From a plasmid, in the sequence record NZ_CP067021.1: a DNA stretch of 64,000 nucleotides, one strand, 5' to 3'. The position numbers were made by a program. Below are positions 39,001 to 45,000 of the stretch, in pieces; the first letter of the stretch is position 1; the number at the start of each line of letters is the position of its first letter.

Positions 39001-42000
39001 GATTTTTAAGAGTTTAGCTTCAGCGCTTCTCGCGATGATTGTTCCATCATTAGAGCTTAAGACAACGCATGGTTTACCCTTTAACTTAGGGTTCCAAAAT
39101 GCTTCCATCGAACAATATGCCGAATTTATATCAACATGAATAAATACCCGGTTTGTCATTTTCGTGCGTCTTTAATGATGTAAGTCACTACGCCCCACAC
39201 AATCAATTCCTGTTCAGGTTTTAGAAAAATATGTGAGTGCTCTTGGTTTTCTGCTTTAAGCCAAACTGGAGGGATAGATTTTGCATCTGGACCAAAAATT
39301 TCATTAATTTCACCAGCTGACATTTGCTTGGTGATCATCAACCGCTTAACGGTAAAGTCTGTTTCTAGCTGAGCAACAATAATATCTAGATGCTTGGCGT
39401 CTAAGCTTCTATCGATTATGAGCTTATCGTTAATATCTATACCGGCATTTAGCATGGAACGAGAGCCTACTTTACCAATAAACGTAGAGTACTCATTGGT
39501 GATCAGCATTTCGTTGAGATCGACCGACTTTTCAATAAAATCTTGTGCTGGTGATGCAAATCCAGCCGACAGCAGCTCTAACGCCACTGGAATGCGTTTA
39601 GGTGCACCAGGAGCAAGAGCTTCAATTTCAACTAAATCACCAGCTTTAAGCGGTATTTCTGATTTTTCTGACATCTCAAGACCGGTGAAAGAATATATAT
39701 ACCAATTCTATTTCTTGCATGTCTGATGATCAATCAAAAAATAAAAACCAGTAGGCATGCCACTTGCCTACTGGTCGTATTGGAAGTTCAAAATTGACTT
39801 AGATCTTAGAAAAACTCAAGTGATATGTTGGACATCTATATTCACTTGAATACACAACCAAGATTGAAGTGCTGGAAGAAGCATTTTTAGCATTAGGACT
39901 TTGGATCTTCAGGTTATTTAATTAACTTCTACCCTTTTGACCTAGCCTAGCTAGGTTTTTTTTTGAAAAAATTTTAAAGCCCAAACAGTCTTTAAAATGA
40001 ATACATCAAGCTCATTGCTTAAAACCTGGAGTATTCAAGATGTATCTACGCTACACGATGTTTAAAACAGATGGAGAAAAAGTCCTTAGTTCGCACGGCA
40101 TTGGGTTAAGCAACTGCTTTATTTACCATGCAGCGGAAATACTCTACAAAGAGGTTCAAAATTCTGCATCTTTTGACCGTTACATTGAGAGATTATCAAA
40201 GTGTAATACGATCAAATACAACCACGAACGACACGGCGACAAAGCACGTATTGTCTATTTTGCACCTGAAGATCTAACGCGTGTCTCTTACAGTACAACA
40301 TATAGCGAACGGGTTGAAAATGCCAATATCGATAGCTTTGACTTGATTACCCTGTACGCTGAGTACAAAACTATTTTTAGTTGTATCTATTTTGATATAT
40401 CAACGAATACCTGGTCTGTACGTACATACACTGATGTATTAACATCAATGGGCATGTTAAAGCCACCAGTAGCACAGTTAGCATTTGCAATATAAGAGCC
40501 CCTGAAAAGTCTTATACCCACCTAGCATTGACCAATCAATGCTAGGTTTTTTTTACGATGCAATTTGATATTCCATTTCATGTTTAAAGTTTGCTTTGAC
40601 AAGTGCATGGGATAGATCTGGAGGTACTGAGTTACCTACCATTCTGTATTGCTCAGTTTTCGTCAGCTTAATTTTTTGGTTATTTTCATCTACACCATGA
40701 GTAAAGATGTAATTGCTTGGAAAGCCCTGAGCCTTATACAACTCAAATGGTTGAATCATCCTAAAACCAATGTCTTCAATATAATAATGTTCATTATTGA
40801 TTTCGATTAAGCCGAAACGTTCAAACAAGTCATTCTTAAAGTTGAATTGCCCGGTAAATTTCAAAAGTAGCGCACGTACTTCCGCAAACTGATTCACGGT
40901 CGTTAACGTGTGAAATGGTTCTGATAGCTCTTGGCCAGTGCACCCCTTTTTCATTTTAGATAGGTGACACACGTATAGCGCATGTGTACCGCCTTTTGTT
41001 TCTGCTGTAATTGTACGTAATGGCTCATTTATTGGCATGGATCTACGACTTGAACCATTGGCACACTCAGTAAGAATTGGCGCCACATTGTCCACGATGT
41101 AAGGTTTTGGGTTGTGAACGATATATTTTAAAATCCCCCTCACAATTCGCTCTAATGTAGCTGGTGCTAAAGGTTTTTTACGCTTGAATATGCTTAAACA
41201 TTCATAATTAAGGTCCACACATTGAGCAGCTGTCTTCCATGGTTGTTTTTTCGTTTTTTGAGGTGCAAAAAAGTCAAATTCAGCATGTGTGGGTTCTGGC
41301 CAGACGATCGGTAAATTGTCACGCCGAGCAATTAAGAAAAATCTATTTCTCAATGTCGGTGCACCATAGTCGCATGCTCGTAGTTCACGATATTCGACCG
41401 TGTACCCTTGGTACCTGAGCGCATTCACGAAACAGTTAAACGTTCGCCCTTTCCGCTTTAAAATCGGTTTACCGTTCTTATCCAAATCACCCCATTCAAC
41501 AAACTCAACCACGTTTTCAAGCATGATGATTCGTGGTCGAACTGTTGCAGCCCACCTTAAAGCAATCCAAGCTAAACCGCGGATCTTCTTGTTTAACGGC
41601 TTGCCACCTTTCGCACGGCTATGATGTTTACAGTCTGGACTAAGCCAAACCAAGCCAACAGGTTGATTGCCCGTAATCTTTACAGGGTTAACATCCCAAA
41701 CACTCTCGCAGTAGTGCTTTGTTTTTGGATGATTGATGCGATGCATGGCCAAGGCTTTCGGATCATGATTAATTGCAATATCAATCGGTCTACCGAACGC
41801 ACGTTCTAAACCAGTTGATGTACCGCCACCGCCAGCAAAGTTATCAACGATTAATTCATGTGGAAGCAAGTTATACATAGAAATTCCCTCTTACAAATGC
41901 CCCTTTATGGCTTAGATCTCTTAATTCATGCGGTACATCTTCTGGAGACAGATACCTATAAGCATGAATAACCTTGCTCAGATTCATACAGCCACCCCCA

Positions 42001-45000
42001 TGCTTTCAACGGCACTTTCTAATGTTTGATGTGCTGAATAATCATCACAGTCGTAATAATCGTCATCGATCAAATTAGAGATGTCGTAGTCACTCAAACC
42101 GCTATTTAAACAGCGACTCAAAAGCTCAGGATCTAAACGATCATACTTGTTGCAAATCGTCATTAACGAATTGCTATGTGCGTTGTTTGCCGTGAAAAAT
42201 GAGTATGCAAAACCTTCAGGCGTTACGCTTCTAGCATTCTTAGTCGCAATACTATTGCCACCGTATAGGCGGTGCATTTTAGAGCCCTCAACAGGTTCAA
42301 CAGGTGCAATTGGTAGGTCGGCATTGAAACGGCCCCACAATAATGTTTTCTTTGTGTATGTATCACCAAAATGAAACGGATCAAACGACAGACGCCACGG
42401 CGACAACCCGGTTAAGCTCGCAATACGCCCTACTGGATTCTCAATTGCCCAAATATTCGGTTTAAAAAATTCAATTGTTCTTAAAGTTTGGTACACCAGC
42501 TCAATACTGCTTAACGTGCGACCATCAGCATCTTTGGCAGTAAAATGTCTTGCACCAGAAACAGCAAAGTCTGTACATGGGCATGCAGCTAAAATCGCAT
42601 GAACGTCCAAACCATCAAAGCATGCAAAAAGCTCGTTAAAGAATTCCACGCTGAAGTTATTAATATCGCCAAAATAAGGATCTGCCTGTATATCAAACCG
42701 AAATACTTGATAGCCAGCATCAACCCATGGTTGTGACCATGTGCCAGACAAATCAAAAAGAGAAAGGACAATTTTTTGGTTGTTTTGGGTGCGGATCGTT
42801 GGATCTAGATATTGGTTAAACGCAACGTTTTTCCATTGTTCTAAACGTTCTAATGCGGAAGATCTGGACATCCAGCCATTAGCTTCTACATATGCTTGTG
42901 ATTTCTTATTTAAGCGAACAACTTCATTCTTATGCGGTGCATCAAAGATGTTTGAAATCTTAAACTCAGCATCAATAAAACTACTTCTTGCATCCAATAA
43001 AAGCTTATTGAAAAGTTGCAATTGTTCATTGTTGTTTTGCGTTTTTACTAAATCCACGACCGACTCCAAGTTTTAAGCAATGAGCTTGATTACTTAATTG
43101 TAGAGTCAGTTTTTCTAATAAAACTTTTTTAAAAAAAATAATATGAAATAGAAAAGGCTGAAATGATCAGCCTTTTATTATTAGCGAAAATAAGATTTAT
43201 ATTTTATTAATACCCTCACATAACTCTAATGCTAGTGGTTACATGGCGAATTCAAACATGAGGTGCGACAGTTTCAAAAGCCATATGATAATCAACAAGC
43301 TGAGCAAATTTCTCTAATGGTGTAAGCCAATCTAACGCTTTTCTAGGACGAGTATTCAGTGACATGGCAACTTGATTTAAATAATGCTGATCTGCCTGAT
43401 TTAAATCAATCCCTTTAGGTAAATATTGCCTAATTAAACCATTCATATTTTCGCATGTGCCTTTTTGCCAGGGTGAATGTGGGTCACAGAAATATACATC
43501 TATGCCTAAATCTTCTTCAAGTATTTTATGTTCTGCCATCTCGCGTCCACGGTCATAGGTCAACGTTTTACGCAGTTCTGCAGGTAAATATTTCAGAGCT
43601 TCAGTTAAAGCCTTGCGCACTGATTCTGCCTTTGCATCAGGTAATGTTGCCAAGATACAGAGCCGTGTATTTCGTTCAATAAGTGTTGCTATCGAACTTT
43701 TATTGTCTTTACCTTTAATTAAATCAGCTTCCCAATGACCCGGTATTTTTCTTTCTTGAACTTCGGCTGGGCGCTCATGAATAGTTTTAATATCCTGTAA
43801 TATAGAATCTTTTTTAGGTTCACCGTTAGCTTTTCGCTTTTTATTTTCATGACGCAGACAGGATAATAAGTCTTTTTTCAACTCACCCTTTGGTAATGCT
43901 CGTATCGTTGAATAAATCGTTGTATGGCTTACATTCATTGTTTGATCCAAATCAGGAAATGTCTTTAAACGTTTTGCTATTTGCTGAGGAGACCATAAAC
44001 AACGGATCGCTTCAACAATAAATTTCCAGAGGATTGAATCGATTTTGAGTTTTCTGTGACCACGTCTACGTCTAGCGAAGGTGTTATCAGAAGCATATTG
44101 AGCTTGATAAACGTCATTGATGCTATTTCTTTTAAGCTCACGATAGATCGTACTAGGATGTCTTTTAATGAGTTCAGCAAATTTTCTGGCTGAAAAGCCT
44201 TCTTTTCTTGACTCAAGCATTAATGCAGTACGATCTTCAAAGTTAAGATGATGGTATGACAATTTTATATACTCCATAAACCCTTTAAATTAATTAGGTG
44301 GTTTATGTCGCACTTCAAGTTTTACTCTGCCCATTACTGGTTGATGCAACCAGGAATAACGAACAGCAAAGTAGTATTCTTTATTAATGGCGCATGAATT
44401 AGTCATAGTAAATACCTACTAGTCTTTAGTTAGCCAAAGGAAGAAACACAGTCCGAAGATGAAGAACCCCAATGTCAAAGGAACAGAAAGAAAAAAATGT
44501 TCGACTACACCAAAGCTAAAAATGGTACCAATATTGGTTGAAATAAAAAATCCCATTACACTAAGTAGTATTGGAAAAATAGCCATGAAAAAAATGTATA
44601 GCATTACTTTCAAAACCTTGTGATTTTGGAAGAATCTACGTTTAAAAAAATCTTTGCTTGGACCACTTAAAATCATGCCTTCACCTATCGCCCATATAAC
44701 TTATTAAGTTTGCCTGATGCTATTTCACTAAACTTTACGTAAATAGTGATTGCCGTTTTCGCTAATTGAATTTCAAGATGTTCGTTAATACGAATGTAAT
44801 ACCCTTTATTCATATTTAGATTTGTTGTTAATTCCTCGATAGCCTTATCAAAATTTTTTTCATCAATGTCTAACAATGACTCATCAGCACTGATGCTTAA
44901 ATTAATTGTTTTAGCTATTTGTTCAAAAGTACGAACCATATTGAAACATTGGTCTATTTTTCTTTTCTTATTGATACCAGTACCATGAATACGTGTTTTA

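Follow-up and report, generated by a model that had tools for sequence, protein, structure and literature searches.

The 64,000-nucleotide stretch of NZ_CP067021.1, a large Acinetobacter plasmid, analysed here (the window) carries, head to tail on the minus strand, two genes, MT-A upstream and MT-B downstream, whose products resemble C5-cytosine methyltransferases. An original prediction had placed two such adjacent genes here, each with one degenerate catalytic motif, and had read their complementary losses as the mark of a heteromeric or neofunctionalised enzyme pair. The two genes are indeed present, as open reading frames (ORFs) of 357 and 441 residues, but we arrive at another interpretation: MT-A and MT-B are likely to be two separate, self-sufficient orphan C5-methyltransferases, each of a known phage or mobile-element family, which protect the plasmid. 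Both genes would be transcribed from the leader-bearing promoter region 5′ of MT-A. Each enzyme would use S-adenosylmethionine and a covalent attack of its cysteine on C6 to methylate plasmid cytosines at C5. MT-B would act at a specific site, because of its large target-recognition domain (TRD); for MT-A, sites that are short or relaxed are more probable. In this way the plasmid would be pre-protected, or protected soon after transfer, against restriction enzymes blocked by 5-methylcytosine (m5C). What we infer from the comparisons below is the activity of the enzymes, their cofactor, the sites they target, the timing and the role against restriction.

MT-B aligns with the PF00145 profile from end to end (residues 11-429 against 4-321 of the 324 profile positions; E 1.3e-27, 97.5 bits for a cut-off of 22), and remains below the stricter, equivalog-level cut-off of TIGR00675 (80.6 versus 100.65). 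It shares the two-domain fold and the motif order I, IV, VI, VIII, TRD, X of canonical PF00145 enzymes such as M.HhaI, M.HaeIII, those of SPbeta/phi3T and PDB 3g7u, the enzyme of E. coli prophage CP-933R. Motifs I (FAGGGG, 14-19), VI (ENV, 121-123), VIII-like (RNRFF, 177-181) and X (GNSV, 415-418) are all present, as had been predicted. The difference lies in motif IV, which is G-P-P-C-Q-x-F-S in canonical enzymes and S-P-D-C-K-H-(F/H)-S in the MT-B clade. Since a phmmer alignment with 3g7u sets ‘spdckhhs’ over ‘gppcqgfs’, Asp82 truly occupies the motif IV proline position. The Pro-Asp-Cys (PDC) reading of the original prediction is thus upheld both at the codon level (Table 1) and by this alignment.

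By comparison with its relatives, this PDC appears to be a variant rather than a loss of motif IV. A protein search recovered at least 8,000 MT-B relatives, and SPDCKH[FH]S is present in 119 of the 120 best. Against the bias of close relatives, phage homologues were taken by tblastn across the whole identity range and blind to the motif. SPDC(K/T/R)HFS appears in five proteobacterial phages (of Burkholderia, Pseudomonas, Citrobacter, Ruegeria and Myxococcus; 34-52% identity), SPECTNHS in two actinophages at ~24% identity to MT-B, and GPECTHFS in dcm5a of the archaeal Halobacterium virus phiH, whereas the control SPbeta/phi3T-type methylase displays the canonical GPPCQDFS. On these grounds the acidic residue before the catalytic Cys appears as a hallmark of an old and very large phage/mobile-element clade, phrog_116, which MT-B matches with an E-value of 4.4e-96. 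Among 53 aligned relatives, F14-G19, P81-D82-C83-K84-H85, E121-N122-V123 and G415-N416-S417-V418 are invariant, as is RNRFF except for the position of N178, itself nearly invariant and a K in most of these relatives. A comparable case is Pmt1/Dnmt2 of S. pombe, whose Pro-Ser-Cys motif, at first thought to abolish activity, later turned out to be compatible with it. Pmt1 is a natural C5-methyltransferase homologue acting on tRNA; MT-B, in contrast, is of DNA type with a large TRD.

The TRD of MT-B comprises ~170 residues (~195-365) between conserved blocks, a region modelled with low confidence. Foldseek matches of the predicted model include DNMT1/MET1, CmoX, 3g7u, HhaI and HaeIII. MT-B should need no partner, since it retains all of its cofactor-binding motifs (I and X) along with its catalytic Cys, its catalytic Glu and this large TRD. 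The phage DNA cytosine C5-carboxymethyltransferase CmoX (PDB 8yf3) has Arg in place of the motif X Asn, and CmoX candidates are defined by SPPC, the motif X Arg and a nearby gene for CmoA, the synthase of carboxy-S-adenosylmethionine (Cx-SAM) (PMC12783734). MT-B does not fit this definition, with SPDC at motif IV and the Asn kept in GNSV. As the residue replaced by Arg in CmoX is kept, MT-B would be of the methyl-transfer type, which makes the non-methylating modification earlier envisaged improbable for this protein.

MT-A is more divergent. Its match to PF00145 is marginal (22.1 bits for a cut-off of 22), and its core (residues 94-292) falls in phrog_757 (E 2.6e-44), a family of small ‘Dcm-like’ methyltransferases with ~1,400 phage records, the majority from phages of Escherichia, Klebsiella and Salmonella. 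Its motifs read LFDLSGTW, ACPCTDF (P160-C161) and ENPVG (E206-N207-P208). A search of its alignment profile against PDB gave only spurious coiled-coil/GCN4 matches and fold comparison was used instead; MT-A has the C5-methyltransferase catalytic fold, and lacks a TRD, because only ~25 residues separate strand 7 from the last conserved C-terminal helices. The original prediction is therefore right about the retained PC and ENP and the missing TRD, but not about the loss of the Gly-rich cofactor loop. The segments VLSLFDGIATG and LLGRSWSVP of DNMT3A have their counterparts in IVLSLFDLSGTW and NARSVTP of MT-A, and motif I of MT-A is, as far as the alignment tells, a DNMT3-like form with one extra change, Gly to Leu at position 3. 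Identity with the catalytic domain of DNMT3A/3B is only ~14%, so that it shows no link closer than the superfamily.

Position 103 is in fact variable within the MT-A subfamily (L, K, H, Y or R), giving the pattern LFD[LKHYR][ST]G.W..PW. The phrog_757 motif I is F/Y-D-G-S-G, to which the FDLSG of MT-A does not conform; because of this FD[LKHYR][ST]G form, MT-A would represent a divergent subfamily of phrog_757 and not a typical member. A minority of small viral Dcms also have a Gly-less motif I, such as FDESG, YDYTG, FDVTG and CDRTG. In 70 relatives, F101, D102, G105, W107, D122, P160, C161, E206, N207 and P208 are invariant, together with K236, R276, S277, T279 and P280. The active-site residues are kept in relatives 33% to 98% identical and also inside polyvalent proteins, and the pattern PC[TS][DEH][FYW][AS]..G was found in 59 of 59 giant-protein relatives (P0241-P0299).

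The functional precedent comes from a phage enzyme of the same family. According to a preprint, the 711-bp dcm gene of phage K42 is the trigger of retron Ec86, and its product makes 5mC in the multicopy single-stranded DNA of the retron, as seen by mass spectrometry after liquid chromatography (LC-MS), suffices alone for 5mC in E. coli and is inactivated in a C82A/E128A/K175A/K176A mutant (bioRxiv 10.1101/2023.08.16.553469). The K42 genome is 95.4% identical to that of KarlJaspers (Bas06) according to the same work, and the KarlJaspers Dcm carries the same four residues at K42 numbers C82, E128, K175 and K176. MT-A residues 94-292 align with the entire 236-residue KarlJaspers Dcm (30% identity, E 2e-18), and C161, E206, K236 and K237 of MT-A fall on these four residues. 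The K42/KarlJaspers Dcm and MT-A are alike in FD.SG, PCT, ENPVG, (T/F)KKT and RS.TP.GFA, and both lack a TRD. MT-A differs in ~93 additional N-terminal and ~65 additional C-terminal residues, predicted helical, in the absence of a 19-residue insert before the KK pair, in a Leu that takes the place of Gly at the third position of motif I, and in being borne by a plasmid rather than a lytic phage. As its small phage relatives trigger retron Ec86, a plasmid with such an enzyme could be sensed by this kind of defence.

The small Dcms also inform on motif IV. In 80 viral small-Dcm contigs, fetched with patterns that avoid motif IV, the catalytic Cys follows P in 52 cases, D in 16, E in 6, V in 4 and S in 1; judging from these natural variants, the position is evidently tolerant in nature. 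We had expected the K42/KarlJaspers Dcm to carry PDC like the Dcm of PeterMerian, but it reads PPC; consequently the argument rests on the interchange of P, D and E within the family and not on an assayed PDC enzyme. The two Dcms of BASEL Drexlerviridae, PeterMerian (L010:1438-2178) and KarlJaspers (L014:15088-15798), are 47% identical, with FPDCT and FPPCT respectively.

MT-A has a second set of relatives, which are far larger. From 1.84 billion representative proteins, 1,532 relatives were recovered, 385 of them with E-values no higher than 1e-30. Those that match best are segments of proteins of 1,000-7,000 residues, with 60-64% identity over MT-A residues ~22-350, and most of the 150 best representatives are of this length. 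Three giant relatives were scanned for domains: the two larger ones carry InPase, one together with an SLT transglycosylase and the other with Eco57I/N6_Mtase (NPPF) and an SNF2 helicase, and the third (1,074 residues) gave only a borderline PF00145 match. In 49 genomic loci, one genome per species, the module lies within ORFs of more than 2,000 codons in ~25 cases and is stand-alone (360-410 codons) in the rest. A Pseudomonas contig shows a stand-alone MT-A-type gene next to an InPase-DarA_N-DdrB-ParB protein and LPD1/LPD3 proteins. The polyvalent proteins share the whole MT-A module, from which MT-A itself differs as a free-standing gene, and MT-A, with its helical N- and C-terminal extensions, can be regarded from these alignments as the solo form of a polyvalent-protein module.

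The giant relatives belong to the polyvalent proteins that phages and conjugative elements encode, which a 2017 survey reads as effectors of the early invasion phase; DarB of P1, an antirestriction protein, typifies their methylase-helicase dyad, and only adenine methylases appear in the survey, the text searched making no mention of a cytosine-C5 module (Iyer et al. 2017, PMC5512222). A C5-methyltransferase-like module nevertheless appears to be common in giant polyvalent proteins, beside DarB-like adenine methylases. Giant ORFs of 2,000-7,000 codons (L018-L061, P0241-P0388) occur in Beta-, Gamma- and Alphaproteobacteria, Planctomycetes and Verrucomicrobia. In these the MT-A-like module is located ~1,000-1,700 residues from the N-terminus, and many have an NPPF adenine-methylase motif 500-2,600 residues downstream of it.

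Both genes seem to be under strong purifying selection. Compared with their orthologues in a second plasmid lineage (L007), MT-A and MT-B have dN (nonsynonymous divergence) of 0.15-0.24 and dN/dS (ratio of nonsynonymous to synonymous divergence) of ~0.06 or less, synonymous sites being saturated. Taken with the alignments, the variant motifs of MT-A and MT-B are best described as conserved family signatures and not decay, contrary to the idea of one degenerate motif in each gene. A non-canonical catalytic motif that looked like decay in a lone sequence is here the normal state of a large clade.

The surroundings of the pair fit a protective function. Pfam and PADLOC scans of the flanking ORFs (151, 85, 258 and 121 residues and others) gave no nuclease, Vsr or defence-family match, and MT-A and MT-B are considered orphans for this reason. 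The protective, anti-restriction reading builds on this orphan status, on the leader array described below and on the relationship with polyvalent proteins that carry DarB-like and SNF2 units; it makes the role on entry into a new host, suggested in the original prediction, plausible by context. The 3.6-kb stretch 39700-43300 is 99.9% identical to 270-340 kb plasmids of A. baumannii, A. junii, A. johnsonii, A. seifertii and A. soli, where both genes are annotated as ‘DNA cytosine methyltransferase’, and the plasmid has been assigned to the mobilizable type. Large resistance plasmids of this Acinetobacter lineage would carry two orphan cytosine methyltransferases, which may ease the crossing of interspecies restriction barriers.

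Several points weigh against this interpretation. In the MT-A subfamily a bulky residue that varies among L, K, H, Y and R takes the place of the first motif I Gly, which could alter cofactor binding. Neither extension of MT-A is basic (the N-terminal one has a net charge of +1, the C-terminal one of -10), so that they do not readily account for DNA binding by an enzyme lacking a TRD. The MT-B model has moderate confidence (pLDDT, the predicted local distance difference test, of 69), and its catalytic loop 83-97 is below 50. The PDC/PEC variant is common in phage and mobile-element enzymes, yet a literature search on the SPDC/Pro-Asp-Cys motif found no characterised or biochemically studied enzyme of this clade, and another on m5C methylomes of Acinetobacter plasmids found nothing relevant. 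For the K42 Dcm, the 5mC evidence is that of a preprint whose search was limited to 5mC (bioRxiv 10.1101/2023.08.16.553469). Finally, neither an origin of transfer (oriT) nor a relaxase was located in the window, and that the array is a ‘leading region’ entering the recipient first is an assumption.

Among other explanations, the one that survives best concerns the chemistry or the substrate of MT-A. It is conceivable, though in our opinion unlikely, that MT-A, and perhaps the whole DNMT3-like clade, moves a non-methyl group or acts mainly on single-stranded DNA; one example would be the transfer of carboxymethyl from host Cx-SAM to cytosine, with 5-carboxymethylcytosine as the product as for CmoX, and another a modification, relaxed in specificity, of single-stranded DNA as it enters. 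We give an equally small chance to MT-A representing in this way an undescribed and widespread polyvalent-protein module with a chemistry or substrate unlike ordinary m5C formation, which would provide a broad camouflage for mobile elements. MT-A does share the motif X Arg with CmoX, but it has ACPC instead of SPPC, and the Arg of its ‘ARSVTP’, at first taken as a CmoX-like mark, was downgraded, since DNMT3A/B/C have G-R-S-W-S-V-P. These DNMT3 enzymes, with the same G-R-S motif, are methyltransferases, and the homologous K42 Dcm is reported to yield 5mC. The 20 ORFs scanned, chosen as neighbours or for their size and covering part of the window, include neither a recognisable CmoA nor a CmoY.

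A role of the pair as the modification component in restriction or defence (Type II restriction-modification, DISARM- or Druantia-like), or in gene regulation, we hold to be somewhat less probable still. MT-B scores against the PADLOC models MTase_II, DruM and DrmMII, and a methylase-DUF4391-SNF2 cluster exists elsewhere in the window. These scores, however, reflect general C5-methyltransferase similarity, and relatives of the two proteins are found in phages, prophages and polyvalent proteins. No endonuclease was recognised next to the pair, whose neighbours are umuDC, an IS30-family insertion sequence (IS) and leader-bearing small genes; a novel nuclease is possible.

A heteromer was part of the original prediction. 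In an obligate form of it, following the DNMT3A-DNMT3L model, MT-B would give the cofactor loop and the TRD, and MT-A the Pro-Cys loop. DNMT3 works as a DNMT3L-assisted tetramer, and the DNMT3-like character of MT-A goes in the same direction. The two genes lie side by side in one orientation, with co-transcription probable, and the pair is kept in several Acinetobacter plasmid lineages, with identities of 72-98% for MT-A and 73-100% for MT-B. Yet both proteins keep the catalytic Cys and Glu, MT-A also having its KK pair and MT-B a complete set of motifs; both variant motifs are family-wide, and the K42 Dcm is active alone in E. coli. The two genes also occur apart. When MT-B was sought by tblastn in all fetched loci, it adjoined MT-A only in Acinetobacter-type plasmid loci (L007-L009, L016, L017, L026 and L027), and it was absent from 44 other MT-A loci, most of them with 6-kb flanks, including an A. 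lwoffii locus whose MT-A is 92% identical. Conversely, MT-A is absent from the two Acinetobacter prophage loci examined (L005 and L006), whose MT-B is 63% identical. An SPDC domain was found in 0 of 148 MT-A relatives, giant or stand-alone, and in other plasmid lineages each gene has its separate leader. An obligate partnership of the DNMT3A/DNMT3L type thus seems very improbable to us, and two self-sufficient enzymes the better description. Equally improbable is a catalytically dead MT-A acting as a DNA-binding decoy or regulator with MT-B alone methylating, a view in line with the marginal PF00145 match, the lost first motif I Gly, the absent TRD and the acidic C-terminal tail, but at odds with the strongly purifying selection and with what relatives keep invariant, namely the nucleophilic Cys, the Glu of ENP, the acidic residues of motifs II/III, the two adjacent Lys and the motif X-like RS.TP, as for an active site under selection.

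The organisation of the locus (Table 1) suggests that MT-A and MT-B are probably co-transcribed as one unit, because a scan of the spacer found no terminator-like or promoter-like site and terminator-like hairpins lie at both ends. The hairpin 5′ of the MT-A leader would shield the pair from transcription arriving from upstream as well as from the IS element, and the one beyond MT-B is probably a bidirectional terminator that closes the unit. The real start of MT-A is most likely the GTG at 43057, matching the NCBI annotation, because it lies 6 nt past the leader's GGAG; an alternative TTG (43069) falls within the leader, which speaks against it. A simple sigma-70 scan 5′ of MT-A found no consensus promoter, a TACAAT -10-like box being the only element noticed by eye. 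A 37-codon ORF (41871-41984, minus strand), whose start overlaps the MT-A stop in an ATGA and whose end lies two codons inside MT-B, was rejected as a translational coupler, being absent from the L007-L009 pair, where the spacer is unrelated; it is probably due to chance.

Table 1. Positions of the MT-A/MT-B pair and of its associated elements in the window
Feature	Position	Strand	Description or basis
MT-A	41984..43057	-	357 aa, GTG start; predicted DNMT3-like C5-methyltransferase without TRD, solo polyvalent-protein module
MT-B	40553..41878	-	441 aa; predicted two-domain full-length C5-cytosine methyltransferase, PDC clade (phrog_116)
MT-A motif I, F101-D102-L103-S104-G105	42743..42757	-	Sequence; DNMT3 type (LSLFD...)
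MT-A motif IV, P160-C161, catalytic Cys	42575..42580	-	Homologue alignment
MT-B motif IV, P81-D82-C83 (cca gac tgt)	41630..41638	-	Codon reading and 3g7u alignment
18-nt leader with Shine-Dalgarno (ATTGCTTAAAACTTGGAG)	43064..43081	-	Exact copy just 5′ of MT-A start
Terminator-like hairpin 5′ of MT-A leader	43152..43176	-	Terminator scan and sequence
MT-A/MT-B spacer, 105 nt	41879..41983	-	AGAGGG ribosome-binding site before MT-B ATG
Hairpin flanked by A and T runs	40520..40547	.	Between MT-B and convergent 151-aa ORF; scored on + strand

The leader ATTGCTTAAAACTTGGAG is present in 14 copies in the window (17507-52344), for 0.14 expected, and 12 of the 14 are on the plus strand. Copies sit immediately 5′ of ORF starts, for example at 24363-24380, 29764-29781, 40014-40031 and 43064-43081. 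The pair had been said to share this leader; this is true of MT-A, which has an exact copy, but MT-B has none of its own in this plasmid. In related Acinetobacter plasmids the orthologues of MT-A and MT-B are each preceded by a ...AAAA(C/T)TTGGAG leader. The leader ending AAAACTTGGAG is also found in other Acinetobacter plasmid loci and not in the Pseudomonas or Pandoraea loci. From its distribution, the leader looks like a plasmid-specific module, made of a 5′ untranslated region and a ribosome-binding site, of a large regulon. The array of small genes spans 35 kb, with a shared leader and, mostly, an upstream palindrome; its edges are a type IV coupling protein (T4CP)-like gene on one side and methylase, SNF2 and SprT-like genes on the other. 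Co-expression of the pair with the array, as initially proposed, is plausible by context.

The palindrome in question is the near-palindrome TTTTAATTGATTAAAA, usually found after ACG(A/G)TG, with at least 15 sites in 16362-51895 (e.g. 29656-29671 and 48122-48137) and 26 strand matches for 0.7 expected. It lies ~100-250 nt 5′ of many leader copies and, in a single example read by eye, adjoins -35 and -10-like boxes. It is probably the operator of a plasmid regulator, as its recurrence and position suggest. When it was sought 5′ of MT-A, no copy of this operator-like palindrome was found. Within the array, the gene starts at 29758-30185 and 47488-47915, leader included, are paralogous (75-87% identical, 17,730 bp apart) and point therefore to a duplication. 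A DUF4942 protein (E 1e-21) is encoded in the same array at 48401-49204 (plus strand) and is also annotated in NZ_CP104345.

On the other side of the pair, a umuD-umuC operon (Y-family polymerase V; 37870-39674, minus strand) lies ~0.9 kb past the 3′ end of MT-B, beyond the 151-residue ORF. An ISAba125-like element of the IS30 family (43245-44331; 1,087 bp, with a 341-residue transposase at 43252-44277 and a 3-bp ATG target duplication) is inserted between the upstream terminator of MT-A and the next gene. It is absent from the otherwise 99.9% identical NZ_CP104345, and accounts for the ~2,000 Enterobacteriaceae plasmid matches obtained in the nucleotide search.

Further away, a minus-strand cluster at 2375-8272 encodes an N6_N4 DNA methylase (642 residues), a DUF4391 protein (227 residues) and an SNF2-type helicase (1,091 residues). 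It is followed, at 9498-12714 on the same strand, by genes for a second SNF2 protein and a protein with an SprT-like metalloprotease domain. Together these genes (2375-12714) could act as a module in defence or anti-defence. An exact direct repeat of 52 nt (8366-8417 and 8563-8614), whose copies are 197 bp apart, lies in the gap that separates the two helicase clusters.

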